Of a stretch of 64,000 nucleotides of DNA, positions 44,069-61,507 are shown in pieces. Below the pieces are notes generated by a model that was given only the letters and a program-made list of their open reading frames with translations, was not told the DNA's origin and searched no databases. Source of the stretch: Candidatus Geocrenenecus arthurdayi (GTDB lineage: Archaea; Thermoproteota; Nitrososphaeria_A; Caldarchaeales; Wolframiiraptoraceae); contig JAKCEX010000001.1 of NCBI GenBank assembly GCA_023539395.1, positions 21,193 through 85,192 of the forward strand, in the 5' to 3' direction. The translations under genes and the position numbers were made by a program. Positions within the stretch are counted from its first letter, which is position 1. Each line of letters begins with the position of its first letter.

Positions 44069-44842
44069 CTAGCTAAAACCTGATACTAAGTCTGAGATGT
44101 ATTTCCTTAACTCAATATAGTATTCTCTAATATTATTAATTGAGGGACAATGGTCGACTTTCAATCCTAAATGTAACGCTTCACTTATCAATCTCTTGCT
44201 AATTACTGAGAGAAACACGTTCTTATGTTTTGTGAATAACTCATTCTCTCTAGAAATAATCTTAAGAATTTTCAGAGAAGTGACAACAATTATGTATCTC
44301 TTGTATTGATCTCTCCTTATAAATTCTACTATCTTCTTCACTGACGTATTTTTCTCGGAGAGAGAGTAGAGTTTCCAGAGATAGGACTGTTTGAAATAGT
44401 CTTTTATAAACTTCTCGAACTGGAAACTCACTTCGCTTGAACAATACACTACTAGGTTTGTCGAGTATGGAAGGTCTACTAAATACTTTATTAATCCCTC
44501 TGATGAGTGCTTTTCTGGATATTCTACCTTCAGTATACCTAGTTTTCTCAGTAGAGAGGCTGTTCCAGGTCCTATAGCTAGTGAATGCTTTTTAGCGTGC
44601 TTCCAAGCTTCTGGGAGAAGCTTCTTAACTATCTTAACTGCTGTCTTGCTTGTAAAAACGCTAACCTCAGGAGTGAAACCTAATGAAAAAATTCTACGAG
44701 CCGACTTAACCTCATCATAGTTAATCTTGACATTAATGACAGGGATTATCTTGAATTCAACATCTAGATCTCTCAAGTACTTGATTATATTCTTAGATGT
44801 ATCTCGTGTTCCAGGTAGTACAACTACTACTCTTCTATCCAT
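44069..44842 (-). CDS. hemD: Uroporphyrinogen-III synthase.
   Basis: 257 aa with the HEM4 two-lobe fold pattern. It overlaps the upstream SUMT gene by 16 nt. Confidence 0.6.
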   Translation of the reverse strand: MDRRVVVVLPGTRDTSKNIIKYLRDLDVEFKIIPVINVKINYDEVKSARRIFSLGFTPEVSVFTSKTAVKIVKKLLPEAWKHAKKHSLAIGPGTASLLRKLGILKVEYPEKHSSEGLIKYLVDLPYSTNLVVYCSSEVSFQFEKFIKDYFKQSYLWKLYSLSEKNTSVKKIVEFIRRDQYKRYIIVVTSLKILKIISRENELFTKHKNVFLSVISKRLISEALHLGLKVDHCPSINNIREYYIELRKYISDLVSGFS

Positions 44843-45567
44843 TTCAACTTCTCTCTCAATTCAACGACTTTCCCAAAAACTAGGACGGCTGGAGGCTTTA
44901 CATCATGTCTTCTAGCTATCTCGACAATATTCTCTAGACTGCCGGCGAAAACTCTTTGAGATGGAAGTGTAGCATTCTCAATTATAGCTACAGGAGTGGA
45001 GGCTGGCAGCCCGGAAGAAAGGGCTTCTCCAATTATCTTTTCCAGATTTGATACACCCATCAAGACTATGATGGTGTCTACAGAGGAGAAAATCTTCCTT
45101 AAGTATTCTACATCATCCCCATACCCTTCTCTCCTATGACCTGTAACTATCGCTACTGAAGATGAACGATCCCTATGTGTTACAGGTATGCCAGCATATG
45201 TTGGAGCAGCGAGAGCCGATGTGACCCCTGGAACTATCTCATACATTACTCCAGCAGACTTCAATGCTTCACATTCTTCCCCGCCTCTAGAGAAGAGCAT
45301 AGGGTCACCATTCTTCAATCTAACAACGACATCATACTGTCTTGCTTTCTCAATGAGCAGCTTATTTATCTCTTCCTGCTTCCAATTCTCACCTCTCTCT
45401 TTACCAACACATATCATCTCCTTCACCTTAACGGCATATCTAAGAATCTCAGGGTTAACAAGCCTATCGTAAACCACTATGTCTGCACTCTCTAATATTC
45501 TCAGAGCTTTCAAAGTAATAAGCTCAGGATCTCCAGGACCAGCACCAACAAGATACACTTTACCCAT
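44827..45567 (-). CDS. cobA: Uroporphyrinogen-III C-methyltransferase (SUMT).
   Basis: 246 aa. The N-terminus is GKVYLVGAGPGDPELITLKA, the class III tetrapyrrole methylase signature. Confidence 0.8.
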   Translation of the reverse strand: MGKVYLVGAGPGDPELITLKALRILESADIVVYDRLVNPEILRYAVKVKEMICVGKERGENWKQEEINKLLIEKARQYDVVVRLKNGDPMLFSRGGEECEALKSAGVMYEIVPGVTSALAAPTYAGIPVTHRDRSSSVAIVTGHRREGYGDDVEYLRKIFSSVDTIIVLMGVSNLEKIIGEALSSGLPASTPVAIIENATLPSQRVFAGSLENIVEIARRHDVKPPAVLVFGKVVELREKLKWIEE

Positions 45568-46341
45568 AAAGTCTCAATACATTCCTACACTCTGTAAATA
45601 TAAAATGTTAAGTGAGAAGCCATGTCAAAGCCTATTTTCAATAGGGAAACATTTATGTGCAAAGATTAGGACGAAATGTAAAGATGGAGTGAGATTCTAA
45701 TAAATACTTGGATTCTCAGTCCTACTGATTATAAGGTTAAAATATTTAGCAAATGCAGACTCTACATTTATTAAAGTTCCAAAGAGTATGACTAAGAAAA
45801 GCTGGAGCAATTTACCCCACGACTGAAAGTCGAGAGTCTTATGCGGTGATTTAATAAGTAAAAAGACATAAGCAGCCTAAACACTTGACATTAAAAGATA
45901 AGGCTTAGAGCTTGAGACAAGAGTATGGTTAATGGAAAAGATATTTGTCAGAATTGACAGAACACTGGAGCAGCTGGAGAAGAGGATATCGAGGGTAGAG
46001 GTATAGCAATAATTATTGGAGAGTTCATTGCTACTATAGTTACATCAATAATATTGATGTTGAAGCTTCTACTAGGGTGAGATAGATGACTACTACAGAT
46101 ATTAAACTAGATAGGAATATTCAGAGGGAGTTGGGCATTATTCTCCACAGCAAAAGTTAGAATTAGAATATATCAATAATTATTCACTTAAGATACGGAA
46201 TTTAGAGGCGAGCTTATTTTGAAGTATTTTTAGGAGATGCTCAGCTTCCAACTCTCCATACTAATGTCCTAGTTACCTACTATTTCTGGAAAATCTATTG
46301 AAAACTTGCATCTACTTTAGGAGGGATAGTTCATGCAGGCT

Positions 46342-46689
46342 CTATCTATAGCTAAAGATTCTAAGGTCATCTCTCACAATTATGCCGATAGTGTCTGCCT
46401 CAACAGCTATAGGATCTCCCTTCTCTCTTAGTCTCCTAAACTCGTCTATCCTTAAGGGTATGACCTCAACTCCAGGTGGTGGGTCTATGTGCTTAAGCCT
46501 TTCTATGGGATTGCCTAGAAAATAATCTGAGATTAACAATACGTCAACATCACTCCATACATTAAAATCGCCTCTTGCATAAGACCCGATGATAACCGCA
46601 GTGACGGTAAACTGCATACCCTTCACCCATCTTCTTACTGCTTCGATTACTTTCTCCTTCTGCTTCATTCTTTCCTTAATGACTTCCAT
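46342..46689 (-). CDS. Minimal nucleotidyltransferase (MNT), Pol-beta superfamily.
   Basis: 115 aa. The GS...D.D motif is GSYARGDFNVWSDVDVLLIS. Confidence 0.65.
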   Translation of the reverse strand: MEVIKERMKQKEKVIEAVRRWVKGMQFTVTAVIIGSYARGDFNVWSDVDVLLISDYFLGNPIERLKHIDPPPGVEVIPLRIDEFRRLREKGDPIAVEADTIGIIVRDDLRIFSYR

Positions 46690-47045
46690 TTCCCCTCAAC
46701 CCAGTCAATTATTATAGATGCATAGGAAACTGCTTGTTTAGAATCATTCAAGGTGTAGTAATCAGTTGGGATACCCTCACTCCAAGCATTCGGGTATCTT
46801 GTCGGTATATAGTATTTATCTAGAGTTTTAGCATGGTCTAAGATTTCGTCAGGGTTCAGCTCCCGTGGTATGTTATGGAGGAGCAAGGAAATGCTATGAC
46901 CCTTTGGGGTTAATCCTAGACCGTGTAGGAGAGCTTTTACAGCATATCCTGCTGCTTGATGAGCTTTAAAACACGCCCAATTATAATCACCTCTTCCTAA
47001 GTCGCCTTCAGCTGAAAGTAATGTCTTTTTGACATCTCTATCCAT
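46665..47045 (-). CDS. HEPN-domain protein.
   Basis: 126 aa with a classical archaeal HEPN pattern (ACFKAHQAAGYAVKALL ... YYIPTRYP). It overlaps the downstream MNT gene by 25 nt. Confidence 0.65.
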   Translation of the reverse strand: MDRDVKKTLLSAEGDLGRGDYNWACFKAHQAAGYAVKALLHGLGLTPKGHSISLLLHNIPRELNPDEILDHAKTLDKYYIPTRYPNAWSEGIPTDYYTLNDSKQAVSYASIIIDWVEGKWKSLRKE

Positions 47046-47123
47046 CTCTTATATTCCTCATCATCAATCAAAGATACCACAATTAGATAGCAGGAATAAT
47101 ATTTAAGCTGTTAATATATCAAG

Positions 47124-48059
47124 CTACCTAGATGAAATATCATAGATTCTTTTCCAAGCGTTTAAGATCTCTAGCCCACCTTTTTCTTTAAACAATCTTA
47201 CTGCATCTGTAGCTGCTTTCGATATGTCGGTATCCTTAGTGAATGTCTGTACGTGTACTTTCCTAGAATAGTCTGTTGATACAGTTGAGATGGTTATGTT
47301 TAATTCGCCTGAATCCATTTCTACGTATACACCGATAGGTGTCTTACATCCAACATTAAGTAGAGAGATAATACCACGCTCAATCATCGTTTCAATCCAA
47401 CTCTCATAATGATTTACATTCTCAAGGATTTTAATCAATTCATGGTTATCCTTCCTAGCTACAACGGCTAATGCTCCCTGCCCAGCGGGAGGGGTGAAAT
47501 CCTCGATGGGAAGCTTTTCATACCTTATGTTTCCACCGATCCTTTCTAGTCCTGCCTCTGCTAAAATCAAAGCGTCAACATCTCCTCTAAGCATCTTCTG
47601 GATTCTTGTCTCAACATTCCCCCGTATTGGAATTACTTCTAAGTCGCTTCTAACATATTTTATGAATGCTTCTCTTCTAAGACTGCTCGTACCAACCTTG
47701 CTAATCCTAGGTAAATCATCCAAGCTTAAACCATCTCTAGATATGAATACATCATAGGGGCTACGTCTCTCTGGTACAGCGGCTATAACGAGTTCACTAG
47801 GAAGCTTTGTTGGATAATCTTTCATACTATGAACAGCGAAGTCTATCTCTCCTCTAATCAATGCTTGGTCAATCTCCTTCTCGAATATGCCTTTCTCCGG
47901 GATCATGTAGAGTGGCGTCTCTAAATCTATGTCTCCTCTAGTCTTTATAATCTTAATTTCGTACTCTAACTCTGGGAATAGAGTTTTCAGCTTATCGATT
48001 ACTTCCATCGTTTGGATGAGCGAGAGCCTGCTACCTCTGGTCCCGACTCTAAGTCTCAT
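47124..48059 (-). CDS. hemC: Porphobilinogen deaminase (hydroxymethylbilane synthase).
   Basis: 311 aa. The N-terminus is RVGTRGSRLSL and the dipyrromethane cofactor Cys region is present. Confidence 0.85.
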   Translation of the reverse strand: MRLRVGTRGSRLSLIQTMEVIDKLKTLFPELEYEIKIIKTRGDIDLETPLYMIPEKGIFEKEIDQALIRGEIDFAVHSMKDYPTKLPSELVIAAVPERRSPYDVFISRDGLSLDDLPRISKVGTSSLRREAFIKYVRSDLEVIPIRGNVETRIQKMLRGDVDALILAEAGLERIGGNIRYEKLPIEDFTPPAGQGALAVVARKDNHELIKILENVNHYESWIETMIERGIISLLNVGCKTPIGVYVEMDSGELNITISTVSTDYSRKVHVQTFTKDTDISKAATDAVRLFKEKGGLEILNAWKRIYDISSR

Positions 48060-49329
48060 CTTCTATCTGAGAAAGAGAATTCTCGATAGCATTTATCGTT
48101 AATTCTACGTCCTCATCCGTATGGGCTGTGGAGAGAAAGCATGTTTCAAACTGGCTTGGAGGGATAAATACGTTATTCTTAAGCATGCCGTGGAAATACT
48201 TTTTAAATAATCTTATATCTGATTTCTTAACATCATCATAGCATGAAACCTCGCTATCGGTAAAGAATACTTGGAACATTGATTCAATATAATTCACAGT
48301 TATCTTTAGAGATCTATCAGATGCTACTTCCCTTATACTTTTACATATTTTTTCTACTTTCCACTTCATCTCAGAATATATTGCTGGGTTTTCTTTTATA
48401 TAACCTAATACGGCTAATGCTGCTTTAGTAGATATAGGGTTACCGCTATACGTTCCAGAGACATAAACTTTACCAGTAGGCGCAACATTCTTCATTATTT
48501 CCTCTCTTCCACCGAAAGCAGAGATGGGTAGACCACCACCTAACGCTTTACCGAGGGTTGTTAAATCGGCTTTTACACCATAGTATTGCTGTGCACCACC
48601 AGGAGAAAGCCTGAAACCTGTTACCACCTCGTCAAATATTAATACTGCTCCAGAATAGTCTGCCAACTCTCTAAGAGCTTTAAGAAAATCTATCTTTGGC
48701 TCAACCAACCCAAAATTTACTGCTACTGGCTCAACTATTATCGCTGCTAGATCATCCCTATTCTCTTTAACTATCTTCTCAGTCAACTCTACATCATTGA
48801 ATCTTGATATAAGCGTATGTTTAGCCACTTCTTCTAGTACACCGGAACTTGATGGTACGCCGAAAGTTAATGCTCCTGACCCAGCTTTAACTAGTAGAGA
48901 ATCGTGTGATCCATGGAAGCATCCTTCAAACTTGATTATCTTCCTCCTACCAGTGTATCCTCTAGCTAGTCTAACCGCATGCATTGTTGCTTCTAAACCG
49001 CTATTAGCAAGTCTAACCATCTCGATAGATGGGTAGAATTCTCTGATCTTCTCGGCTAACAATACTTCTTCTTCAGTCGGTGCACCATACAAGATGCCAT
49101 CTTCCACTATCTTCTTTAATCTCTCTACAAGCATACTAGGAGCATGCCCAAAGAATAATGCTCCATAACCCATAACATAGTCAATATACTCTCTACCATC
49201 TACGTCGTATATCCTCGAACCTTTACCCTTCCACACAAAAAATGGGTAAGGGTCATAAGCTCTTACAGGACTATTAACCCCTCCAGGAATAACTTTCCTA
49301 GCTCTTTCATACAATTCGAGAGAATTCAT
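48049..49329 (-). CDS. hemL: Glutamate-1-semialdehyde 2,1-aminomutase.
   Basis: 426 aa with the canonical GSA-AM motifs (GGVNSPVRA, the DEV.TGFR PLP region). It overlaps hemC by 11 nt. Confidence 0.85.
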   Translation of the reverse strand: MNSLELYERARKVIPGGVNSPVRAYDPYPFFVWKGKGSRIYDVDGREYIDYVMGYGALFFGHAPSMLVERLKKIVEDGILYGAPTEEEVLLAEKIREFYPSIEMVRLANSGLEATMHAVRLARGYTGRRKIIKFEGCFHGSHDSLLVKAGSGALTFGVPSSSGVLEEVAKHTLISRFNDVELTEKIVKENRDDLAAIIVEPVAVNFGLVEPKIDFLKALRELADYSGAVLIFDEVVTGFRLSPGGAQQYYGVKADLTTLGKALGGGLPISAFGGREEIMKNVAPTGKVYVSGTYSGNPISTKAALAVLGYIKENPAIYSEMKWKVEKICKSIREVASDRSLKITVNYIESMFQVFFTDSEVSCYDDVKKSDIRLFKKYFHGMLKNNVFIPPSQFETCFLSTAHTDEDVELTINAIENSLSQIEDET

Positions 49330-49818
49330 ACTTTCTTTTAAATACTAAACTCTAATTTAAAACTAACTCTAACATTTAAATTAGACTAGAGGGGCTGGGT
49401 AGCACTTGTAGATGAGATAGGAGAGAAGGGAGAAGCTTAGGAACATACAATAGTCTGGTCTAGAATGTATATTCTTGGCTACTGACGGTTAATAATTGAT
49501 GTTATGTGAGAAGATATTTACTGGGCTGAGGTTAGAGATGGGAGAGTTGAATGCCTCCGACGTCATCCATCATAAATGCTGGAGACTGAGAGCTACAAGC
49601 TTATAGATGGGTGATTCTAAAGCAAACCTATACTACATCAGATTGCTTCACTTATCTGTAACATCGTCTTCTAGAAAAATCTTTAAGAAATGTAGCTACC
49701 TAGAATATTTAGATAATGGAGGCTGTAAGCTCCAACTCAAACGGTTCTCTGAAATGTAGGAAGAGGCTTGGTAGAATGCGTAGAGGGATGAGGCTTGGCA
49801 TGATAATACCGATAGAAG

Positions 49819-50238
49819 GTGGACAGGGTGCCTGTAAGAGTAAGAGTGAAGATTGAAGAAGTTAGGGGGAGTGGAGTTATTTATTCTGAAGCTCTTCTCA
49901 AAACAGGTTTTACATCTGAAGAGTTAGATATACATATCCCTAGGGAGCTAGCTAGAGAACTGGGACTGTGGCCTCCACCTCGAGATGCTTCGCTAGAAAT
50001 TCTTGATACAGCTGGTGGAGAGACTCTAAGCTATTTCATACCAAGTGCCGTGAGACTTACTGTTATAGAAGAAGATGAAACTTCGAAAACGATTACATGC
50101 AATGTCATAGTTTCACTCCGGGAGAAAGAGGTACTGCTCTCAGATGAGGTTATTGAAGAGCTTGGGATTGAGATCTTATCTCCTAAGACTGGGATTTGGC
50201 GGTTCAAAGGTGAAGAAAAACTTAGGAGGAGTGTTTAA
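49819..50238 (+). CDS. Hypothetical protein (GTG start).
   Basis: 139 aa. It contains LEILDTAGGETL, which faintly resembles the retropepsin DTGA motif. No assignment is made. Confidence 0.3.
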   Translation: MDRVPVRVRVKIEEVRGSGVIYSEALLKTGFTSEELDIHIPRELARELGLWPPPRDASLEILDTAGGETLSYFIPSAVRLTVIEEDETSKTITCNVIVSLREKEVLLSDEVIEELGIEILSPKTGIWRFKGEEKLRRSV

Positions 50239-50311
50239 CCGCATAAGTATGTAGTAGATTTGCTTAGAAAAAATGATATGAACACTCTATCCATGGCTAG
50301 ACTATTCTTGA

Positions 50312-51340
50312 TCATGGAAGCTGACCATCTCTAAGCCATCTAGCATATTCTTTAGCATGATATGTAATCACCGTATCTGCGCCTGCTCTTCTTATAGAGT
50401 GCAGCTGCTCCCATACAGCTTGCTTCTCATCTATTAATCCTTTCTCAGCCATAAGTTTAATCATAGTATATTCACCGCTAACAGAATAAGCTGCAATAGG
50501 AATATCGAAGTAGTTCCTGATAAGAGATATTACATCTAGATACCATGATGCAGGCTTAACCATGACTATATCTGTACCCTCGGATATGTCTAGTTCAACC
50601 TCCCTGAGAGCTTCCCTAAGATTCCTCGGATCCATCTGGTAGCTTCTCCTATCACCAAAAGCTGGCTTTGAGTAGGCGGCAGACCTGAATGGACCATAAA
50701 GGCTTGATGCATACTTTACAGAGTATGACATTATCGCTGTATCGGTATATCCTGCACTATCTAGAGATCTTCTTATCGCCCAAACCCTCCCATCCATCAT
50801 ATCTGAAGGGGCCACGATATCTGCTCCAGCTTCTGCATGGCTTAGAGCGATCTTCGCTAAAACCTCGATTGTTGAATCATTATCAATAATCTTCTTCATG
50901 TCTTTCTCTATGACGATTCCACAGTGGCCGTGACTAGTATACTGGCATAAACAAACATCTGTAATTACAACTACTTCTTCTCCAAAATTCTTCTTAACCT
51001 CCCTAACAGCTCTCTGCACAATTCCATTTCTATCATATGCAGAAGATCCAAGTTCATCTTTCCTTAAGGGTATACCGAACAGGAGGATTGCTTTTATCCC
51101 TAGGTCTAGTAGCTCGCTTACCTCCTTCAATAACTCTCTAATGGATAGTCTCTCCTGCCCAGGCATACCATCTATTGGTTCACGTCCATCTAATCCATCC
51201 TTCACAAATATAGGCATGATGAGAGATGAGGGGGTAACCTTTGCTTCTGCAGTTAAGTCTCTAATAACCTTACTCTTCCTAAGCCTTCTCAACCTAATAA
51301 TTGGGAAATGACGTCTTTCAAGTTCGATTGACTCTGACAA
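50312..51340 (-). CDS. hemB: Porphobilinogen synthase (ALA dehydratase).
   Basis: 342 aa. The metal/active-site Cys region is [14 protein letters not shown] and the Schiff-base Lys region is present. Confidence 0.85.
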
Positions 51341-51477
51341 TCTAGATTGCCCCGCCTCTACTCACACTTACTCAGCCTCTTATAAACGTTAATCTTCAAC
51401 CTCTCAAAACCAATTCTGAATAGAATAATATGCTCTGCTAGTGAAACTCTACTCGGATACTCTTAGCTAACCCTCAC

Positions 51478-52236
51478 TTGCATCATCTTCCGGAGATGAG
51501 TGTGTACCTCAACGTTTTTAAGTGCTCAAATCAAAACTTTATTGAGTTCATGAGGATGCCTTTCTTCATTGATTTATCCGGCAAGACGATTCTGATCATA
51601 GGTGGTGGAAGAGAAGGAGCAAAGAGAGCAGAGAAGTATTCAAAAAGTGGAGCTAGAATCATAGTGTATAGTAGAAGCTTCGATGATAAGATATTAGAGC
51701 TTAGCCGCAGAGGTTTTATAGAGCTGGTTAAAGGAGATGTGGAGGATATAGGAAAGCTTGAAGAGTACATCAAACTCTCAGACATTATAATGGTTACACT
51801 AGAGACAGAAGAATACAATGATATAATATGGAATATTGCTAAGAAACATAAAGCATTAATAAACCTCGCTAATAATGCTGAGAAAACAGATCTAGTTGTA
51901 CCAATAGATTCCTCTATAGGTCCATTCAGAGTCGCTATAACAACTGAGGGTAAAAGCAGTATGGTTGCACGAGAAGCATTACAGAAAGTCATAGAATACC
52001 TTAGTAGAGAGAAAGAATTGATAAGCTTAGCGGAGATAATGTATAAAGTTAAGAGGATTGTAAGAAAGAGTATCGCTAACCCTGATACAAGATTGAAAAT
52101 ATACTATGAAGTCTTCAATAATAAAAATTTAAGAAAAGCATTGAGATCGGGTGATGAATACTTGGTTGACGAAATATTGAGGAATATATTGAAAGAGTAT
52201 GGTTTAGAGATAGGAAGCTGTGAGGAATATGAATAA
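51478..52236 (+). CDS. sirC: Precorrin-2 dehydrogenase / sirohydrochlorin ferrochelatase-like protein (SirC / CysG N-terminal type).
   Basis: The Rossmann is KTILIIGGGREGAKRA and the siroheme-synthase N-domain architecture is present. The probable start is MRMPFF at about 51550. Confidence 0.65.
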   Translation: MHHLPEMSVYLNVFKCSNQNFIEFMRMPFFIDLSGKTILIIGGGREGAKRAEKYSKSGARIIVYSRSFDDKILELSRRGFIELVKGDVEDIGKLEEYIKLSDIIMVTLETEEYNDIIWNIAKKHKALINLANNAEKTDLVVPIDSSIGPFRVAITTEGKSSMVAREALQKVIEYLSREKELISLAEIMYKVKRIVRKSIANPDTRLKIYYEVFNNKNLRKALRSGDEYLVDEILRNILKEYGLEIGSCEEYE

Positions 52237-53611
52237 GCCGAGAATAATCATCTCTGGTGTTAGCGGCAAGATAGGGAAAACACTCATTACTTCGGCTATC
52301 ATCAGCCTGCTTAGAGAACGTGGATACAGAGTGCAGCCATTCAAAGTCGGACCAGACTTCATAGACCCTTCTTATCATAACATATTCTCAGACGTTTCTT
52401 CACGTAACCTTGATTCTATAATGTTCAATCGAGAAACTATTATCAAATCTTTCTGTAAAATTATGAAAGACGCAGATATATGTGTAATAGAAGGGGTTTT
52501 CGGGCTCTATGATAGCGTAGATGGAGTATCAGAGAGGGGGAGTACAGCGGAAATATCAAAGATTCTCAAAGCGCCAGTCATTTTAATAGTTGATGCTGAG
52601 AGGATCAATAGAGGTCTCCTAGCTTTAGTTAAAGGATTTGTGGAGTTCGATAGAAAAGTAAAGCTTGCAGGAATAATAGTAAATAAGGTAGCACATGAAA
52701 AACAAAGAGAGAAAATAGTAAGTGCTTTTAGGGAAAACTTTAAAGAATTAGAAATTATCGGTCTCATCTATAGAGACAGTCTTATCGAGGAGAAGATGAA
52801 GTATAGACATTTAGGATTAATCCCAATCTCAGAGAGAACAGATGAGATAGAAGAGATAAAACAAGCCATAGGAAAAGTCGGTAGACAAATCGATATTGAT
52901 AAGCTCATCGAGCTGGCTTCTAATGTGGAGGAGATATGTCCTCCTGAATCTGAGGAAACAGGCTTTGTGGTTAGACGTAGTATTAAGGTAGGGGTTATCA
53001 GAGATAATATATTTTCATTTTACTATCCAGAGAATATAGAGTTTTTCGAGGCTACCTGCGATAAAGTCTACAATATCGATTCAACTAGAGATTCATCGCT
53101 TCCAGAAGTAGATTTGCTCTATATTGGAGGAGGGTTTCCAGAAGTCTATGCTGAAATGCTTGAGAAGAATAAACCTTTGAAAAATGATATTAAGAAGAAG
53201 TATGATAAAGGATTGAAGATCTATGCTGAATGCGGTGGGCTAATCTATCTATCGAGTAATGTCAGGACTTTTAATGGTGAAGAATATGAAATGGTTGGGT
53301 TGATTGATGGTTACATAGAAATGGGTAGAAGACCTGTAGGTCATGGATATGTATATCTCTCAGCCATTAGAGATAATCCTCTGACAAACTTCAACCAACG
53401 CTTAATAGGCCATGAATTCCATTATTCTCGGTTAACCTTGAGAGAGAAGGTAGATTTTGCTTTCAGGGTTGAGAGAGGATACGGGGTGGATGGGTTACAT
53501 GATGGAGTAATAAAAGAGAATCTCCTAGCAATGTATACGCATCTACACTTTCTCCATAATCCAGAAGTTTTTAGAAAGTTAACAATGTGGGCAAATAAAA
53601 GTCAGCGATAG
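52220..53611 (+). CDS. cbiA: CbiA/CobB/CfbB-family a,c-diamide synthase (glutamine amidotransferase).
   Basis: 463 aa. The N-terminal ATP-binding AAA/MinD-like domain reads ISGVSGKIGKT. The C-terminal GATase region is ECGG. It overlaps sirC by 17 nt. Confidence 0.7.
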   Translation: MRNMNKPRIIISGVSGKIGKTLITSAIISLLRERGYRVQPFKVGPDFIDPSYHNIFSDVSSRNLDSIMFNRETIIKSFCKIMKDADICVIEGVFGLYDSVDGVSERGSTAEISKILKAPVILIVDAERINRGLLALVKGFVEFDRKVKLAGIIVNKVAHEKQREKIVSAFRENFKELEIIGLIYRDSLIEEKMKYRHLGLIPISERTDEIEEIKQAIGKVGRQIDIDKLIELASNVEEICPPESEETGFVVRRSIKVGVIRDNIFSFYYPENIEFFEATCDKVYNIDSTRDSSLPEVDLLYIGGGFPEVYAEMLEKNKPLKNDIKKKYDKGLKIYAECGGLIYLSSNVRTFNGEEYEMVGLIDGYIEMGRRPVGHGYVYLSAIRDNPLTNFNQRLIGHEFHYSRLTLREKVDFAFRVERGYGVDGLHDGVIKENLLAMYTHLHFLHNPEVFRKLTMWANKSQR

Positions 53612-54465
53612 CCTATACTCTCTAGGAAAGAGAGTACCTCTCTATTAACTATATCTGGTCTCTCTAGCAAGACATAGTGACCATAACCCTCAATTATGAC
53701 GAGCTTAGAGTTTGGGATCTTTTCATGGACCTTCTTAGAAAATTCAGGCGGCGTCCTCTCATCTTTATCTCCAACTATTATGAGTGTGGGCACTTTTATT
53801 GTATGAAGCTTATCTGACGCATCGTATTTAGCTAATGTTTTAACAATGTTTAAGTAATCTCTCCTTCTATTTTTAGTCAAGTCCTCGACCGCCCAGTTGA
53901 TAATCTCGGGACTAGTAGATTTCGAGAACATCTTCTCAACTTCTTTCTTTACTTGATTTTCATACTTCAATGACTCGAATCCTTCAAAATCTGCGAAATC
54001 CATGAAGAGTGTAAACATTTCACGTATAGTTCTAAGATATGCTTCTATAAGCATTCCAGGTCTTTTATGTAGCCTGCTTGAAATAAGTATTAATCCTCTT
54101 ACTTTTTCAGGATGATCAAAATAATATTGTGTTGATATCATTCCACCCATTGACCAACCTATTAATACAAGTTCATCTATGTGTAGATGGTTTAGAACTC
54201 TATCTACATCTTCAGCAAGCTTCTCAACGGTTGTAGGCTTTTCTAATCTAGCAGACTTGCCATGACCTCTAACATCAATTGCAATTACCTTATACTTCTT
54301 TGAGAATTCAGGGATCTGCATCCTCCACCATTCATGAGAAGCCCACGCACCATGAATTAGTAAGACAGGTTTACCCTCACCATAAACCTCATAATAAATC
54401 TCATTATCTAAATAGGGCATCAAGAAAATCTCTTTGAAGCTTAGATTAAAACATATCTTCTTCAA
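53602..54465 (-). CDS. Alpha/beta-fold hydrolase.
   Basis: The nucleophile elbow is GWSMGG and the HG oxyanion region is LLIHGAW. The start is probably the internal MPYLDNEIYY at about 54420. Confidence 0.65.
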   Translation of the reverse strand: MKKICFNLSFKEIFLMPYLDNEIYYEVYGEGKPVLLIHGAWASHEWWRMQIPEFSKKYKVIAIDVRGHGKSARLEKPTTVEKLAEDVDRVLNHLHIDELVLIGWSMGGMISTQYYFDHPEKVRGLILISSRLHKRPGMLIEAYLRTIREMFTLFMDFADFEGFESLKYENQVKKEVEKMFSKSTSPEIINWAVEDLTKNRRRDYLNIVKTLAKYDASDKLHTIKVPTLIIVGDKDERTPPEFSKKVHEKIPNSKLVIIEGYGHYVLLERPDIVNREVLSFLESIGYR

Positions 54466-54483
54466 TCTTAATCAGCCTGACCC

Positions 54484-54560
54484 TGTCAACTTTTACTTAA
54501 GCTTTTCTCTTTATATCTATGGCCAGGTTTCTGTTATGTTTTCTTATGCATGTATTGGAT
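54484..54560. repeat. Copy B of the duplicated intergenic element of about 77 nt.
   Basis: tgtcaacttttacttaagcttttctctttatatctatggccaggtttctgttatgttttcttatgcatgtattggat. It is about 75-80% identical to copy A. It shares the blocks TGTCAACTTTTA, TCTATGGC, GGTTTCT and TTTCTTATGCA. It lies in the divergent hydrolase/hemA intergenic region. Confidence 0.6.
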
Positions 54561-54973
54561 TACAATGGATAGGTTGTCTAAGCTATTCAAGTTTAATAAT
54601 TATCCATTGGGTGAGAAGGCTTAATCTATTATGCTTCATATTGCTGGTTTAAGCCTTAGAGACCTCTCAGAGATGTACTATGTAACGATGGCTTCCAAAA
54701 AGAGTGTTAGGAGATGATGCCATAGATTCTCAAGGATATTCTCTGTAGAGAAGAAGTTTAGGGATACTGTTGGGAGATTCTTCAGATACCTAAAACAGAG
54801 GACTAGAAGATTCTACAACAATATAAATACTTGGAGTATCAAGTCTATAGAAGACTATGCATCAGCAATAGCAATAATAAGAAACATACTCACAATAATG
54901 AAAACACAAGAAGGCCTATTACCTGGCATGACAGGATCATCTCGATATTACTTGTAGAAGCTTTTTAAGAACC

Positions 54974-56287
54974 GTGAGACCTTTATCTATAGTTGATGAT
55001 GGTATGTCTTTGAATGCTATTCATGGTCTCCTCTTAAACCATAAGCTGCTACCTATATCTAGGCTTGAGAAGTTTTTCTTTAGAGACTTGGAATTAGCGC
55101 TTAGACTATTTAAGAATGTTGGTGGTGTTGAAGGTGTAGCTATACTCCAGACATGCAATAGGGTGGAAGTATATCTTGATCTAAGAAGTGAGGAAGCAGT
55201 AGAGGAGGTAGTAGGTATCTGGAGAGATTTAACCGAAGACATGGATGTTGAGAGGAATATCCTATTGGTTAGGGGGGCCGAGGTGGTTAAGCATCTATTC
55301 AGGCTGGCTTCCGGTCTTGAATCAATGGTTATAGGTGAGCAGGAGATTCTACGTCAAGTAAAAGAAGCATACTACAAAGCATTAGCTGTTAACAGTCTAT
55401 CTCTACTACTTAAGATGATATTCGAGGAAGCTATCAGGATCGGTAAGAAGGTTAGGTCTGAGACGGAGATAAGTAGGAAGAGGATGAGCCTAGCCCATGT
55501 CGCCGTCGAATTAGTTGAGAAAATACTCAAGAACATGGATGACAAGGTAATCCTCATAATAGGTGCTGGGGAGACAGGCGAGCTAGTAAACTCTGCATTA
55601 ATGGAGAAAAACTACAGGAAGCTCACCTTGCTATTCGCTAATAGAACCTATGAGAGGGCTATCCATCTAGCTAACATGAGCGGAGGGATAGCTCTAAGAC
55701 TAGACCAGGTTGAAAACTATCTAAGAATAGCAGATATAGTATTCGTGACGACTTCCGCACCTCACTACATTATAACTAAAGAGAGGGTAGCGGAAGCGAT
55801 CAAAGGGAGAGATAAGCCCCTCCTGGTAATCGACTTATCTGTTCCTAGAAACGTCGACCCTGAAGTCTCAAGACTGCAAAACCTAAAACTCATAACAATA
55901 GACGACCTTAAAGAACACATCGACCACTCAATCTATGATAAGATTAAGGAATTAGATAAGGTAGAAGCATTAATCGAAGAGTACGTGGAGAAGTTCCAGG
56001 AGAAGCTAGAAACAATATGGATTGAAGAACTAGTCTCCAAGATCTACAGTTATGCAGAGAAGGTTAGATTAGAAGAAGTTTTAGAAGCAATGTCTATGAT
56101 CAAGACTGTTAAGCTTGATGAGAGAAGCAGAGAAATAATAGAAGACATGTCCCGAGCAATAGTCAAGAGAATACTAAACCCATTAATAGAAAACCTTAGA
56201 AGAAACTACAAAAATGTAAATAAAGTAGACCTAAGCAGCCTGTTAAGAATATATATTGAAGAAAGAGATTTTGATAAAAACGGATAA
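54974..56287 (+). CDS. hemA: Glutamyl-tRNA reductase.
   Basis: 437 aa. The catalytic Cys region is ILQTCNRVEVY and the NADPH site is IIGAGETGE. Confidence 0.8.
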   Translation: MRPLSIVDDGMSLNAIHGLLLNHKLLPISRLEKFFFRDLELALRLFKNVGGVEGVAILQTCNRVEVYLDLRSEEAVEEVVGIWRDLTEDMDVERNILLVRGAEVVKHLFRLASGLESMVIGEQEILRQVKEAYYKALAVNSLSLLLKMIFEEAIRIGKKVRSETEISRKRMSLAHVAVELVEKILKNMDDKVILIIGAGETGELVNSALMEKNYRKLTLLFANRTYERAIHLANMSGGIALRLDQVENYLRIADIVFVTTSAPHYIITKERVAEAIKGRDKPLLVIDLSVPRNVDPEVSRLQNLKLITIDDLKEHIDHSIYDKIKELDKVEALIEEYVEKFQEKLETIWIEELVSKIYSYAEKVRLEEVLEAMSMIKTVKLDERSREIIEDMSRAIVKRILNPLIENLRRNYKNVNKVDLSSLLRIYIEERDFDKNG

Positions 56288-56417: not shown

Positions 56418-56738
56418 ATGCCGTACGTAGAGTTTAAGGGACAGAAGCTCGAAGTAGATGAGGATGGTTTTCTACAGGAACCTGAGAAATGGAGTCCAGA
56501 AGTTGCAGAATTCTTTGCTAAGCATTTTGAGGGAGTAGAGAAGCTTACTGATGAACATTGGAAAGTAATAAATTATCTTAGAGAATACTGGCAGAAATAT
56601 GGTGTAGCTCCACCTATAAGGATGCTTGTAAAGCAGACAGGGTTCTCCCTCCAGAAGATATATGAGCTCTTCCCTTCTGGACCTGCAAAGGGTGCTTGCA
56701 AGGTAGCCGGACTACCAAAGCCAACAGGCTGCGTCTAA
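56418..56738 (+). CDS. dsrC: DsrC (TusE/DsrC family) with both conserved C-terminal cysteines.
   Basis: 106 aa ending in ACKVAGLPKPTGCV. This is the DsrC C-terminal arm with CysB and the penultimate CysA 11 residues apart. Confidence 0.8.
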   Translation: MPYVEFKGQKLEVDEDGFLQEPEKWSPEVAEFFAKHFEGVEKLTDEHWKVINYLREYWQKYGVAPPIRMLVKQTGFSLQKIYELFPSGPAKGACKVAGLPKPTGCV

Positions 56739-56779
56739 CATAACAGCTAGATATATTATATCATGTATTTATTTGTCGG

Positions 56780-57484
56780 GTGGTTGGATTGAGTCACACT
56801 GAACGTGGTGAGAAGACAGTATCTCAAGAAAGGAGGACAGCGCTAAAAATAATTACATCTATCTCATTTATTGTAAGTCTTGGTAGTCTAGCTTCACTCT
56901 TAAAATCTATTAGCCCAGTTGTTTTAGAGATCCCTGAGTGGCCACGTGTAAGGTTAGCTAATATTAATGGGATCAAGCTTAGAACATGGTATCTATTTTC
57001 TTATCCAACAAAAGATATTCCATGCCTATTAGTGAAGACGGGTAAAAGTCTTCCTTCAGGGGTAGGCCCAGATAGAGATATAATCGCATATGTTATGATA
57101 TGCCAGCATGCCAGATACTATGGTACAATCTACATCCCACCCAAAGAAGTTAGAGACCCAGAAAAACTTACATATTTGAAGACTGTCCCACCAAACATCC
57201 TGGAACTATACCCGGACAAGAATTTGCTCTATTGCCCAGCTCATGCTGGAATCTACGACCTTGAGAAAGACGGCGAAGTACTTGCAGGACCACCTTTCTG
57301 TAGCCTATGTAAGGTCGTACTTGAATATGATGAGGCTTCAGGAGACATTTATGCTGTTGGTCTTTCCCCGCCAGCCCCGGCTGTACCGGGAGTTACGCAC
57401 TGTTCCAACAATCCTGAAGAACTAAAGAGGATTATGCTTGGAAAAAAGCTTGTGACGGAGGCGTCTCTAGAAGAGAAGATCTAG
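56780..57484 (+). CDS. Rieske-type [2Fe-2S] protein with a Tat signal and membrane anchor.
   Basis: GTG start. The twin-arginine motif is ERRTALKI, followed by a TM helix. Box I is CQH and box II is CPAHAGIYD...GPP. The box II context (CPxHGxYDxxGxxxxGP) is strongly Rieske-like, but both disulfide-forming Cys are replaced. The spacer between boxes is unusually long, about 40 aa. Confidence 0.55.
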   Translation: MVGLSHTERGEKTVSQERRTALKIITSISFIVSLGSLASLLKSISPVVLEIPEWPRVRLANINGIKLRTWYLFSYPTKDIPCLLVKTGKSLPSGVGPDRDIIAYVMICQHARYYGTIYIPPKEVRDPEKLTYLKTVPPNILELYPDKNLLYCPAHAGIYDLEKDGEVLAGPPFCSLCKVVLEYDEASGDIYAVGLSPPAPAVPGVTHCSNNPEELKRIMLGKKLVTEASLEEKI

Positions 57485-58978
57485 GTGATCAAGTTGAGTG
57501 AGAGAAAGAGCATCATCAGTAGGTTCACGGAATGGCTTGACGAGAATTTTGGTTTTACAAAGACTATTCTCCGCCCCGCCCCTGAGTATTCTCTTAGGAA
57601 CCCCTCCTACTGGTTGGGTGCTATAAATGTTATAGCTTTCTTCACGGCGGGTATTACAGGGATAATACTCCTCCAATACTATGAACCCCATCCTGATACT
57701 GCATGGGAGTCTGTAAGTAGGATAATTACAGAAGTTCCTTATGGAAACCTCATCAGAAACATACATATTTACGCAGCTTTTTCCATGATATTCGTTACAT
57801 TCCTACATTTTATGAGGAATTATTTTGTCGTTGCTTATAGGAGGCCTAGAGAGTTGATGTGGATTATAGGTATGCTTATGGGTTTAGCTACTTTAATGAT
57901 GGGGTTTACGGGTTACCTCCTCCCATGGTATGCTCTCTCATATGCAGCTGTAGGATTCGGGATAACAATAATAAAGCAACTGCCCCAGCCATTAAGCGGC
58001 TTCCTTGAATACGTTATCTCAGGATACGGAACAGATGTAGAACTTCTGAGAAGATTCTACACATTCCATACAGTCCTGCTACCTGCTGTAATCATTATCT
58101 TGCTAGCTGTAAAACTACACATATTCGAAGTCCATGGAATAACGGAGCCCCTATCCAAGGACATCCCAGAAGAAGAAAAGAAGCTTATCCCATGGTTTCC
58201 AAACATATTTCTATACTTTGTAATCTTGGTCTGCGTCTATATTGCATCAATACTTACAGCATCGATAATATACCCATTCGGGATACATGAGAAATATATT
58301 CCTGGCGTTGTCACTATACCTATGCCTGAATGGTATTTTATGTGGACGTATGCGATAGCTAAGACGGAGTTCATAGAGGTGCTCGGCGCGACAGGCTTCA
58401 AGATCTTTATAGCAACCCTCATAATCATAACATTGATCTTCGTATTCCTACCATTCATAGATAGATGGAAAGATAAGCATCCTTCTCAGAGACCCTTCTT
58501 CATAGCTATAGGGGTTTGGATAGTAGTCCAGATAAGCTTGATGACTTATCTAGCGTGGGCAACGGCAGGCTCATATATACCTTCAGATACAGCCATTCTC
58601 TCAATAGTTATCCCAACGATAATAGTATTCATAGCTGCCTACCTATATCGATTAAAGCTGGTAAAGCCGCCTGAACTAGTATGGGAGAAGTTTAGTAAAC
58701 TGAAACAAACAAAGCTAGAGAAAACCTCTGGTAATCCTAGAGAATCCATCTTGGTGGCCATAAAATTCTTATTAACTATAATGTGTGCAGGTTTATCATT
58801 TAGGATTATCTATGGGTCCTTAAGTGAAAACTTAAGCTTCGGATGGTTTATACTTGGCTTAGCTTTCTTCGCCTTCTCTACTATAGAATCATTTAAAGTA
58901 GTTTATGTTGCAGACTTGAAGGTTGGAAACGTGGGGAGAAGATTGAGGTCTTTTGAGAGGTGGTTTGGAGTTGGCTAG
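57485..58978 (+). CDS. Cytochrome b of a Rieske/cyt b complex (cyt b6 plus a subunit-IV-like fusion).
   Basis: 497 aa, GTG start directly after the Rieske stop. The His pair 13 residues apart (NIHIYAAFSMIFVTFLHF) is typical of cyt b helix B. Further His residues sit in helix D. There are about 10-12 TM helices. Confidence 0.7.
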   Translation: MIKLSERKSIISRFTEWLDENFGFTKTILRPAPEYSLRNPSYWLGAINVIAFFTAGITGIILLQYYEPHPDTAWESVSRIITEVPYGNLIRNIHIYAAFSMIFVTFLHFMRNYFVVAYRRPRELMWIIGMLMGLATLMMGFTGYLLPWYALSYAAVGFGITIIKQLPQPLSGFLEYVISGYGTDVELLRRFYTFHTVLLPAVIIILLAVKLHIFEVHGITEPLSKDIPEEEKKLIPWFPNIFLYFVILVCVYIASILTASIIYPFGIHEKYIPGVVTIPMPEWYFMWTYAIAKTEFIEVLGATGFKIFIATLIIITLIFVFLPFIDRWKDKHPSQRPFFIAIGVWIVVQISLMTYLAWATAGSYIPSDTAILSIVIPTIIVFIAAYLYRLKLVKPPELVWEKFSKLKQTKLEKTSGNPRESILVAIKFLLTIMCAGLSFRIIYGSLSENLSFGWFILGLAFFAFSTIESFKVVYVADLKVGNVGRRLRSFERWFGVG

Positions 58979-59234
58979 AAGTATCGAGATTGCTCTAGTC
59001 ATCCTACTTTTAGTTCAAGGTGTATTGACTGTTTTAACATGGATGCTAAACCCAATAATAGTAACTCATCAGACTCTCGCAGCTGGATATATTGCTTCAA
59101 GCTTAATCATCCTAAGCCTAATAACTTACGTCTACTATAGAGGTGAAGAGTATGACCAGGAGTGGATAGCAGCCGGTATTGGGATGATAGTCCTAATACT
59201 ATTACTTACATATCTTAAGGGAGGTGTCGTGTAG
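58953..59234 (+). CDS. Small membrane protein (about 3 TM helices), possibly an accessory subunit.
   Basis: 93 aa and hydrophobic. It overlaps the cyt b 3' end. The next gene starts 1 nt after it. Confidence 0.3.
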   Translation: MRGGLELARSIEIALVILLLVQGVLTVLTWMLNPIIVTHQTLAAGYIASSLIILSLITYVYYRGEEYDQEWIAAGIGMIVLILLLTYLKGGVV

Positions 59235-60044
59235 GTGGACCCATTGATCTTCATCATAGGCTATATAACTCCATACATAGCATTCTTCACATTGATTTTA
59301 GGCTTGATGTATAGAGTGGTGAGATGGCTTTCAATACCAGTTCCATTCAGGCTCCCGGTTGCTCCTGCACCTATAACGTATACAGGAGTATTGAAGGGGA
59401 TGTCGTTGGACTTCTTTGCATTTAGAAGCTTACTAAAAGGTAATAAGAAGCTCTGGATAGGTGGATACGTCTTCCACGTAGCTCTAGCTATAACCTTAAT
59501 CTCTCACATAATCAATGTATACTTCCATGAGCTCTGGGCAGTCATCGGGTATGGATGGTATGAGGCGGTGCTATATTCGGGGATATTCTTCCTAGCTGCA
59601 TTATCTTTCCTCCTAGTTAGAAGAATAGTTCTTCCAAATGTGAGATATATCTCAAAGTTAAGTGATTACATTATCTTAATACTTTTGATTACAATAGTAT
59701 TCCTGGGAGTTTACATGAGAAGTTTTGGATTAGTGGATGTAGCCTCCGTAAGTGAATATATGCATAGTCTCCTAATGTTCAACCCTATCCCGCCGCCGGG
59801 TAACATATGGTTCTTAACACATTATGTTTTAGCCCAGATACTGTTTATTTACATACCATTCAGTAAAGTATCTCACTTAATCGGGTGGATCCTAGCGACT
59901 ACTAGGAATATGAGGAATATAACTAGGTGGAGGAGACATGTAAACCCATGGGATTACCCAGTTGAAGTAATTACTTGGGATGAATATTACCAGAAGTTTA
60001 AAGATGAGCTAGAAGCAATCGGACCAGGAGGTGAGAGAAGATGA
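59235..60044 (+). CDS. DsrM/HdrE/NarI-like membrane subunit (second paralog).
   Basis: 269 aa, GTG start. It is collinear with the dsrM-like protein at 43146..43829 (the N-termini read IFIIGYITPYIAFFTLILGLMYRVVRWL versus IFIGIYLPYITLVVFIVAVIYNFFKWI). His residues sit in the TM helices. Confidence 0.6.
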   Translation: MDPLIFIIGYITPYIAFFTLILGLMYRVVRWLSIPVPFRLPVAPAPITYTGVLKGMSLDFFAFRSLLKGNKKLWIGGYVFHVALAITLISHIINVYFHELWAVIGYGWYEAVLYSGIFFLAALSFLLVRRIVLPNVRYISKLSDYIILILLITIVFLGVYMRSFGLVDVASVSEYMHSLLMFNPIPPPGNIWFLTHYVLAQILFIYIPFSKVSHLIGWILATTRNMRNITRWRRHVNPWDYPVEVITWDEYYQKFKDELEAIGPGGERR

Positions 60045-61507
60045 AGATAGATATGAGTTTCCCTGCAAGGAAGTATAAACTCTATGCTACGTGGAAACGC
60101 GATATGGAGATTATGAAGCTACCCTTCCCAAGAGAGTGGAGTCATACACAGTTTAATCTACCACCCAATTGGAGGGAAATAGCTTTAAAGAAGATGGATG
60201 AAGTGGTAAAGAAGTTTAGGTCTGTTAAGCTCTTCCTAGATATATGCGTAAAATGTGGAGCATGCACAGATAAATGTCCATTCTTCCTCGGCACATTAGA
60301 CCCCAACAATATGCCGGTTGCAAGACAAGACCTATTCAGATCAGTCTATAAGAGATACTTTACGTTAACTGGCAGGGTCTTCAGGGGGCTTGTTGGAGCA
60401 GAAGAACTTACAGAGGAAACAGTAGAGCTTTGGTATACCTATTTCTATCAATGTTCTCAATGTAGAAGATGCTCCGTCTTCTGCCCCTATGGTATAGATA
60501 CTGCGGAGATAATGATTGCCGCTAGAGAAGTGCTTACAGCAATAGGTCTCAGCCCAAGGTCGCTTACTGAAGCAATAGCTAAATGTGAAACCATAGGAAA
60601 CCACATGGGCATACCTCCAGCAGCTTTACTCAGTGCCATACAATTCGCAGAAGAAGAAATAAAAGAAGAGACAGGAATAGAAGTTAAGGTACCGATAAAC
60701 AAGAAGGGTGCAGAGATACTCTATGTTCCGCCTTCTGCGGACTTCTTTGGGGGACCCCACTGGGGGACGCTTAAAGGAGCTATAAAGATGTTCCATCAGA
60801 TCGGGTTAGACTATACAATAAGCACTTATGCAAGTGAAGGTGGTAATTTTGGTACATGGCTTGGATATGAGCATATGAAGAAGATAAATAAGAAGCTTGT
60901 TGAAGAAGCTAGGAGGCTTGGTGTTAAATGGATACTTGGTGGAGAATGCGGACATATGTGGAGGGTTATCCACGCTTTCATGGATACTATGAATGGACCA
61001 CTAGATTTCTTGGAAGAACCTGTCTCACCTATAACTGGTACAAAGTTTGAGCATGCAGCATCTACCAAGATGGTTCATATCTGCGAGTTTACAGCAGACT
61101 TGATAAAACATGGAAAACTTAAGTTAAACCCGGATGCAAATAATCAGTACATTGTTACATATCATGATTCATGTAATCCGGCCAGGGTTATGGGGCTTAT
61201 AGAGGAACCCAGATACATACTAAAGAATGTATGCAGGAATTACGTAGAGCTTGACCCGAATGTAAACAGAGAGAAAACTATATGCTGTTGTGCAGGTGGG
61301 GGGTTACTTGCAGATGAGACAATTGAATTAAGACTTAAAGCTATTAGACCAAAGATCGAAGCTATAAAGAGGACTGGTGCAAACTTCTTGGCATGCATAT
61401 GCGCGATAGATAAAGCAGCATTCACTGAATATTTTGAGCATTACAAACTACCCATAACAGTTGGAGGAGTTCATGAACTAGTTGGAAACGCATTAGTGTT
61501 TGATTAA
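60041..61507 (+). CDS. DsrK/HdrD-like CCG-domain iron-sulfur protein (second paralog).
   Basis: 488 aa. The ferredoxin motifs are CVKCGACTDKCP and CSQCRRCSVFCP, and the CCG domain reads ICCCAGGGL. Its start overlaps the upstream stop (ATGA). Confidence 0.7.
   Translation: MKIDMSFPARKYKLYATWKRDMEIMKLPFPREWSHTQFNLPPNWREIALKKMDEVVKKFRSVKLFLDICVKCGACTDKCPFFLGTLDPNNMPVARQDLFRSVYKRYFTLTGRVFRGLVGAEELTEETVELWYTYFYQCSQCRRCSVFCPYGIDTAEIMIAAREVLTAIGLSPRSLTEAIAKCETIGNHMGIPPAALLSAIQFAEEEIKEETGIEVKVPINKKGAEILYVPPSADFFGGPHWGTLKGAIKMFHQIGLDYTISTYASEGGNFGTWLGYEHMKKINKKLVEEARRLGVKWILGGECGHMWRVIHAFMDTMNGPLDFLEEPVSPITGTKFEHAASTKMVHICEFTADLIKHGKLKLNPDANNQYIVTYHDSCNPARVMGLIEEPRYILKNVCRNYVELDPNVNREKTICCCAGGGLLADETIELRLKAIRPKIEAIKRTGANFLACICAIDKAAFTEYFEHYKLPITVGGVHELVGNALVFD

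Follow-up and report, generated by a model that had tools for sequence, protein, structure and literature searches.

Which tetrapyrrole is amidated by an enzyme of the CbiA/CobB/CfbB family whose gene overlaps that of a SirC-like precorrin-2 dehydrogenase and lies among hem genes? The question is raised by a gene pair in a stretch of contig JAKCEX010000001.1 from the archaeon Candidatus Geocrenenecus arthurdayi; the whole of this stretch, 64,000 nucleotides (64 kb) long, is referred to as the window. We consider it probable that the amidotransferase gene is an archaeal dsrN, and that sirC and dsrN constitute a small operon maturing the cofactor of the sulfite reductase DsrAB. The assignment is made because of clade-level synteny and not because of diagnostic residues. 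The initial annotation proposed an amidase for siroheme-type tetrapyrroles rather than a B12 enzyme, and this proposal is supported by synteny with dsr genes across the clade (Nitrososphaerota/Aigarchaeota, Korarchaeota and Pyrobaculum). The pair is composed as follows.

51556..52236, plus strand: sirC-like precorrin-2 dehydrogenase of the CysG-N/Met8p/SirC family, 226 amino acids (NAD_binding_7, TIGR01470, PDB matches)
52229..53611, plus strand: dsrN, glutamine amidotransferase of the CbiA/CobB/CfbB family, proposed siroheme amidase, 460 amino acids (CbiA and GATase_3)
52229..52236, plus strand: sirC/dsrN overlap of 8 nucleotides, ATGAATAA, read from the sequence

The longest open reading frame (ORF) of sirC covers 51478-52236 (+) and opens at TTG 51478; gene calls from six independent metagenome contigs place the start at ATG 51556. 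For dsrN, the longest ORF is 52220-53611 (+), with GTG 52220 and 463 amino acids, and the true start is most likely ATG 52229 (MNKPRIIISG), because homologues open with MNKPR or MKAKR. An overlap of 17 nucleotides results from GTG 52220 and one of 8 nucleotides from ATG 52229; the two genes are coupled with either choice. The coupled ORFs of the initial annotation thus exist and overlap, by a likely 8 nucleotides and not by the 17 given there. The overlap is kept in relatives, with 8 nucleotides in locus L097 and 1 nucleotide (TGATG) in L088, which suggests co-transcription and translational coupling. About 35 nucleotides upstream of sirC, the A/T-rich motif TTTTTAAG is a candidate archaeal TATA box.

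To place the amidotransferase in its family, homologues were surveyed in one genome per GTDB species by an alignment-based scan. Among the matches listed, 80 loci with 10-kb flanks provided a broad sample at 35-45% identity. Their flanks were typed in two ways, by a search with the Dsr proteins of the window and by clustering of flanking ORFs, the clusters being named according to Pfam. In this sample of listed matches, genes dsrA, B, C, K or M occur within 10 kb in 47 of the 80 loci, and at least three cob/cbi genes (cobQ, cbiB, cobS, cobT, cobU, cbiC, D, G, J and others) in 16 of the 80. A nifH-like gene directly upstream was observed in a single locus (1/80), L065 of Methanomethylicota; we read it as cfbC, in a CfbC-CfbB arrangement.

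A neighbour-joining tree with 100 bootstraps was constructed from the survey proteins and 24 database hits. The window protein, Pyrobaculum, P0043 and Nitrososphaeria L009 belong to one clade (99/100 bootstraps), called the window clade below, while a dsr-linked group of Archaeoglobi/Hydrothermarchaeia and the bacterial DsrN group were each recovered in 100/100 bootstraps. The cob-linked sequences, including the archaeal L074 and L076 (Thaumarchaeota), lie outside all three dsr-linked groups; they are joined by Bathyarchaeota L044, whose flanks are free of cob genes. CfbB-type sequences also remain outside the three groups, and L065 joins sequences of Syntrophoarchaeum and Methanobrevibacter. 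Phylogeny had been suggested at the outset as a check; it places the protein in an archaeal clade with dsr linkage, separate from CfbB and from cob-linked CbiA/CobB. Two strains of Pelotomaculum propionicicum illustrate the same separation, one copy (L018) being linked to dsr genes and the other (L069) to cbi genes; each copy stands in its own context, and DsrN and CbiA are therefore distinct paralogues. P0017 and P0054, considered as two paralogues on one contig (both listed with 25,548 bp), turned out to be on different contigs.

The nearest named relatives, with amidotransferase identity to the window protein, are the following.

Nitrososphaerota archaeon, 75%
Ca. Caldarchaeales, 65%
Aigarchaeota, 64%
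Ca. Methanodesulfokora, 53%
Pyrobaculum, 47%
Archaeoglobus, 44%

Judged by these names, the source is probably an uncultured member of the Nitrososphaeria resembling Caldarchaeales/Aigarchaeota. In the window, dsrC begins 2.8 kb downstream of dsrN, and dsrAB ends 10.6 kb upstream. The 75% relative (L097) has the order sirC-dsrN-hydrolase-hemA-dsrC-Rieske-cytochrome b-x-dsrM-dsrK. In the 64% relative (L088), dsrBA-dsrKM-SUMT (uroporphyrinogen-III C-methyltransferase) is followed by sirC-dsrN, the hydrolase and dsrC-Rieske-cytochrome b-x-dsrMK, with no hem genes in between, SUMT apart. Copies of the Korarchaeote (L089), Pyrobaculum and P0043 lie beside dsrC, dsrMK and dsrAB, and the Nitrososphaeria homologue (L009) also adjoins dsr genes; altogether, dsr linkage was seen in relatives L088, L097, L089, L090, L092 and L009. 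Two copies of the Archaeoglobus type abut dsrC. Counting the window, 6 of the 8 examined members of the window clade have dsr neighbours, and none of these 8 neighbourhoods contains cob genes. When the two archaeal dsr-linked clades are taken together, dsr genes are present in 9/11 neighbourhoods examined (window included) and cob genes in 0/11. The linkage that persists through the clade is to dsr genes, often with siroheme synthesis, and not to hem genes as such.

Association with siroheme synthesis extends further. The Pyrobaculum dsrN also adjoins SUMT, and in Gallionella and related Proteobacteria with dsr clusters of the sulfur-oxidizer type (L039, L041 and L057), dsrN is followed by a sirC-like gene and SUMT. 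Because of this CysG-like pairing, the link of dsrN to genes of siroheme synthesis is not confined to archaea.

The same neighbourhoods bear on the possibility that the enzyme amidates another tetrapyrrole derived from or related to siroheme, such as an intermediate of siroheme-dependent heme synthesis in archaea, and not the DsrAB cofactor. Archaea make heme from siroheme, the window gene is located inside a hem cluster and coupled to sirC instead of directly to dsrAB, and genes for heme proteins (cytochrome b, DsrM) are close by. However, amidated intermediates are not known to us from the Ahb pathway, the sirC-dsrN pair of L088 is positioned directly between dsrBA-dsrKM-SUMT and dsrC in a cluster lacking hem genes, and dsr genes are the neighbours that persist clade-wide. 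On balance, we regard a substrate of this kind as very unlikely.

Turning to the protein itself, residues 9-447 comprise a P-loop domain of the CobQ/CobB/MinD/ParA type (CbiA, PF01656) followed by GATase_3 (PF07685, E 8.6e-40); residue numbering follows the 463-amino-acid ORF. NCBIfam model TIGR00379, which is of the 'subfamily' and not of the 'equivalog' kind, is matched with 481 bits (cutoff 261), in agreement with the full-length CbiA/CobB/CfbB-family protein described initially. Of the positions that are at least 95% conserved among 104 DsrN, CbiA and CfbB-type sequences, all are kept (54/54), including the P-loop G19-K20-T21, GPDxID 44-49, E91, C338 of the ECGG motif and H441. A PDB sequence search with the amidotransferase matched its glutaminase domain only (cobyric acid synthase chain 5n9m; GatD) and found no solved structure of CbiA, CobB, CfbB or DsrN.

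Profile hidden Markov models were built for five groups: bacterial DsrN, cob-linked CbiA, CfbB-like sequences and the two archaeal dsr-linked groups. The window protein scores 525-531 bits on the two archaeal profiles and 447 bits, the lowest of the five values, on the CfbB-like one. Profile scores alone do not split archaeal DsrN from CbiA.

Several observations weigh against the assignment to DsrN. The protein passes the CobB equivalog PRK01077 (401 bits, cutoff 254) in addition to TIGR00379, and it is labeled cobyrinate a,c-diamide synthase by database sources, a name which the NCBI pipeline gives to DsrN proteins as well. It scores 499 bits on the bacterial DsrN profile and equally 499 bits on the cob-linked CbiA profile; a search for signature columns gave a few weak positions, only one alignment column is common to all dsr-linked groups as opposed to CbiA, and H53 and V93 are kept as in CbiA, having been lost in bacterial DsrN. 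Bootstrap support at deep nodes is weak, 59% for a union of the two archaeal dsr-linked clades and only 38% for all DsrN sequences as one group, in a tree that is neighbour-joining and not maximum-likelihood. Inside the window clade, the P0014/P0017 subclade (L091 and L094) has no dsr gene within 10 kb. Finally, a literature search retrieved neither biochemical proof for any archaeal DsrN nor evidence that archaeal DsrAB carries siroamide.

The P0014/P0017 proteins are 58-60% identical to the window protein, and their genes are situated amid those for glycerol kinase, an FAD oxidase and aldehyde:ferredoxin oxidoreductase, with no cob genes within 10 kb.

The passed TIGR00379 and PRK01077 models, the equal profile scores and the residues H53 and V93 would suit a genuine cobyrinate a,c-diamide synthase (CbiA), or a dual enzyme for B12 and the Dsr cofactor, its early tetrapyrrole neighbours being incidental. 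Clusters shared by hem genes and cbiA do exist, as in loci L060 and L078 of Bacillota. There, however, cobQ, cbiB, cobD, cbiJ or cbiG stands alongside the hem-linked cbiA, whereas Pfam and NCBIfam scans of the sizeable ORFs across the 64-kb window revealed no cbi/cob family, which bears out the absence noted in the initial annotation. Neighbourhoods of the two archaeal dsr-linked clades are likewise dominated by dsr and free of cob genes, and the cob-linked Thaumarchaeota sequences group with CbiA and not with the window clade. From the window and these neighbourhoods, a B12 function is judged improbable. With CbiA/CobB, the window protein shares family TIGR00379, the conserved residues and the chemistry of amidation with ATP and glutamine; it differs by its location outside cob/cbi operons, by its separation from cob-linked homologues in the tree and by its expected substrate, an iron isobacteriochlorin and not a corrin.

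A second alternative is the Ni-sirohydrochlorin a,c-diamide synthase CfbB, which takes part in coenzyme F430 synthesis, belongs to the same family and also acts on a macrocycle of the sirohydrochlorin type. CfbB model NF033195 is the second-best NCBIfam match, and a 53%-identical relative comes from the Korarchaeote Ca. Methanodesulfokora, which is reported to encode Mcr. Nevertheless, the score of 444.8 bits is below the curated cutoff of 560, the CfbB-like group profile ranks last, and the window contains neither mcr nor nifH/nifD-like cfbC/D genes. Even the homologue from the Korarchaeote has dsrC, dsrMK and dsrAB as neighbours, and the nifH-linked L065 groups with the methanogen-type sequences named above, away from the window clade. 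A role in F430 synthesis appears extremely improbable.

The preferred reading, an archaeal DsrN, can be compared with what has been described for this protein. Genes resembling cbiA next to dsr genes have been named dsrN since the late 1990s and tied to siro(heme)amide since 2006. To our knowledge, DsrN function rests on genetics of Allochromatium vinosum and on cofactor chemistry; we know of no in-vitro assay, and no in-vitro demonstration of DsrN activity was found in the literature. Work of Matthews et al. from 1995 is said to have described siroamide with one amide, not two. The initial annotation was aware of no assigned amidating enzyme for siroamide, a statement superseded by the existing assignment of DsrN. 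In the parts of Lübbe et al. (2006) relayed by later papers (PMC10504309, PMC7617358, PMC3368242), DsrN, a CbiA/CobB homolog, was concluded to be necessary for amidation of DsrAB siroheme in A. vinosum, and glutamine-dependent siroheme amidation was proposed for DsrN of this species and of sulfate reducers; the assignment is repeated in PMC7617358 and PMC3368242. DsrN has been recorded in 1610 genomes carrying DsrABCMK, a minimal DsrABCNMK set is spoken of (PMC12948486), and dsrAB has already been reported in non-ammonia-oxidizing Nitrososphaeria and Aigarchaeota. An 'archaeal reductive-type DsrN' clade has been published, with archaeal DsrN basal to the bacterial clades (PMC10504309). An assignment through synteny and not through diagnostic residues fits the published view that archaeal DsrN has a basal position and arose from archaeal CbiA/CfbB-like proteins.

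With DsrN, the window protein has in common the two-domain architecture, the catalytic residues and linkage to dsrAB, dsrC and dsrMK. The differences are coupling to sirC amid hem genes, rather than a position inside a dsr operon, and a distance from bacterial DsrN that is expressed in 35-41% identity to the bacterial loci recovered in the survey and in a profile score no better than that for CbiA. The window gene is an ordinary member of the already known DsrN family. DsrN now serves as a core marker for the Dsr pathway, also in archaeal lineages, and the automatic label "cobyrinate a,c-diamide synthase" overstates the capacity for B12 synthesis in dsr-carrying genomes.

The partner of dsrN agrees with the SirC-like precorrin-2 dehydrogenase recognized initially. 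Its ORF matches NAD_binding_7 (PF13241, E 1.5e-17) in Pfam and TIGR01470, the N-terminal domain of siroheme synthase, in NCBIfam (73.5 bits, cutoff 62.3). The best PDB matches are residues 4-206 of Salmonella CysG (1pjq, 6p7d) and Bacillus megaterium SirC (3dfz), with low similarity to these structures (E 1e-11 to 1e-9). The fold, the passed model and the alignment to CysG 4-206 are thus common to the window protein and the CysG N-terminal module, Met8p and SirC, whereas a stand-alone form of 226 amino acids coupled to dsrN sets it apart. As a protein of the CysG-N/Met8p type, it may also insert iron; no chelatase of the SirB or CbiX type was found in the 64-kb window.

Both genes can be viewed against the other genes of the window, in which Pfam and NCBIfam support the initially noted setting of hemA, B, C, L, D and SUMT, as well as the nearby dsr system, here resolved into dsrAB, dsrC and two dsrMK pairs.

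39318-40391, minus strand: dsrB (TIGR02066, 488 bits, above cutoff)
40394-41578, minus strand: dsrA (TIGR02064, 537 bits, above cutoff)
41745-43139, minus strand: dsrK-like (Fer4_8/CCG, Pfam)
43146-43829, minus strand: dsrM-like (Nitrate_red_gam, Pfam)
44069..44842, minus strand: hemD, uroporphyrinogen-III synthase (Pfam HEM4)
44827..45567, minus strand: SUMT, uroporphyrinogen-III C-methyltransferase (TP_methylase; TIGR01469, 296 bits, cutoff 185)
47124-48059, minus strand: hemC (Pfam Porphobil_deam)
48049-49329, minus strand: hemL (Pfam Aminotran_3)
50312..51340, minus strand: hemB (Pfam ALAD, E 9.5e-145)
53602..54465, minus strand: alpha/beta-hydrolase (Abhydrolase_1)
54974..56287, plus strand: hemA, glutamyl-tRNA reductase (GlutR_N, Shikimate_DH, GlutR_dimer)
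56418..56738, plus strand: dsrC (TIGR03342, 129.8 bits, cutoff 53.5)
56780..61507, plus strand: run of Rieske-like, cytochrome b, small ORF, dsrM-like and dsrK-like genes after dsrC
59235-61507, plus strand: second dsrM/K pair, within this run

Genes hemB and sirC are transcribed divergently. The remaining genes of the window belong to the shikimate pathway and to housekeeping functions.

From this gene content, the following route can be proposed. HemA, L, B, C and D would provide uroporphyrinogen III, which SUMT would methylate to precorrin-2, the substrate of SirC. The SirC-like enzyme would oxidize precorrin-2 with NAD+ to sirohydrochlorin, with possible iron insertion to siroheme. CbiA and CfbB activate a side-chain carboxylate by ATP and obtain ammonia from glutamine through a Cys-His glutaminase. 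DsrN would similarly use ATP/Mg2+ in its P-loop domain to activate the carboxylate of a tetrapyrrole acetate, in a CbiA-like manner, and its Cys-His glutaminase domain would release ammonia from glutamine; the product, siro(heme)amide, would be loaded into DsrAB. Siroheme and sirohydrochlorin are both candidate substrates of DsrN. The number and position of the amides, the delivery to DsrAB, the presumed ferrochelatase step of the SirC-like protein and its timing before or after amidation are inferred. As a convenient expression pair, the compact sirC-dsrN operon of thermophilic archaea could serve in a DsrN assay.

In archaea where siroheme serves both as DsrAB cofactor and, via the Ahb route, as heme precursor, DsrN coupled to sirC might be a branch-point enzyme, a role at which gene order hints. 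Early amidation of sirohydrochlorin or siroheme would commit part of the pool to DsrAB and shield it from heme-forming decarboxylases, perhaps with the hydrolase as an accessory. We put this forward as a speculative and improbable extension of the DsrN assignment.

The hydrolase gene (53602-54465, -) runs towards dsrN and shares the final 10 nucleotides of that gene. This convergent arrangement is kept in L097 and L088, and the association of the two genes may simply reflect shared ancestry.

The module dsrC-Rieske-like-cytochrome b-small ORF-dsrM-like-dsrK-like (56418-61507) is conserved in L088, L097 and the Korarchaeote L089. The DsrMK joined to Rieske and cytochrome b genes is a second pair, beyond the dsrMK that adjoins dsrAB. 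When the window is compared with L088, DsrA, DsrB and DsrC are 91-95% identical, and DsrN, SirC, SUMT, hydrolase and Rieske proteins 56-76%. Either very strong constraint or recent exchange would explain the high identity of DsrABC.

A radical SAM/SPASM protein is encoded next to the dsr genes (37701-38777, +). Counterparts were found in L088 (1765-2817, 63% identity) and, beside dsrC, in L089 (12760-13743, 37%). The protein is below cutoff on every NCBIfam model, and its weak matches include AhbD, AhbC and NirJ, families that modify siroheme derivatives; it could be another cofactor maturase.

Contigs L002, L004 and L005 share with the window, at about 99% identity, a block of 10.4 kb (44487-54926) that extends from hemD to the hydrolase. 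The flanks of these loci differ on both sides of the block, with longer dsrM/K-like genes upstream, and downstream a 428-amino-acid protein without assignment and glycosyltransferases where the window has hemA-dsrC. The pattern is suggestive of rearrangement at strain level or of chimeric assemblies.

Between SUMT and hemC, a nucleotidyltransferase/HEPN pair (46342-47045, -) is inserted that resembles a toxin-antitoxin module. For the HEPN gene, the call in contig L001 has only 77 amino acids, against 126 in the window; populations therefore differ at that spot.

Four sizeable ORFs in the window have no Pfam match: 24644-26071 (-), 28294-29367 (+), 49819-50238 (+) and 61657-62475 (+). The 139-amino-acid ORF between hemL and hemB is gene-called in other contigs. 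For the ORF of 272 amino acids after the second dsrK, L097 has a counterpart of similar size and placement, equally without a Pfam match.

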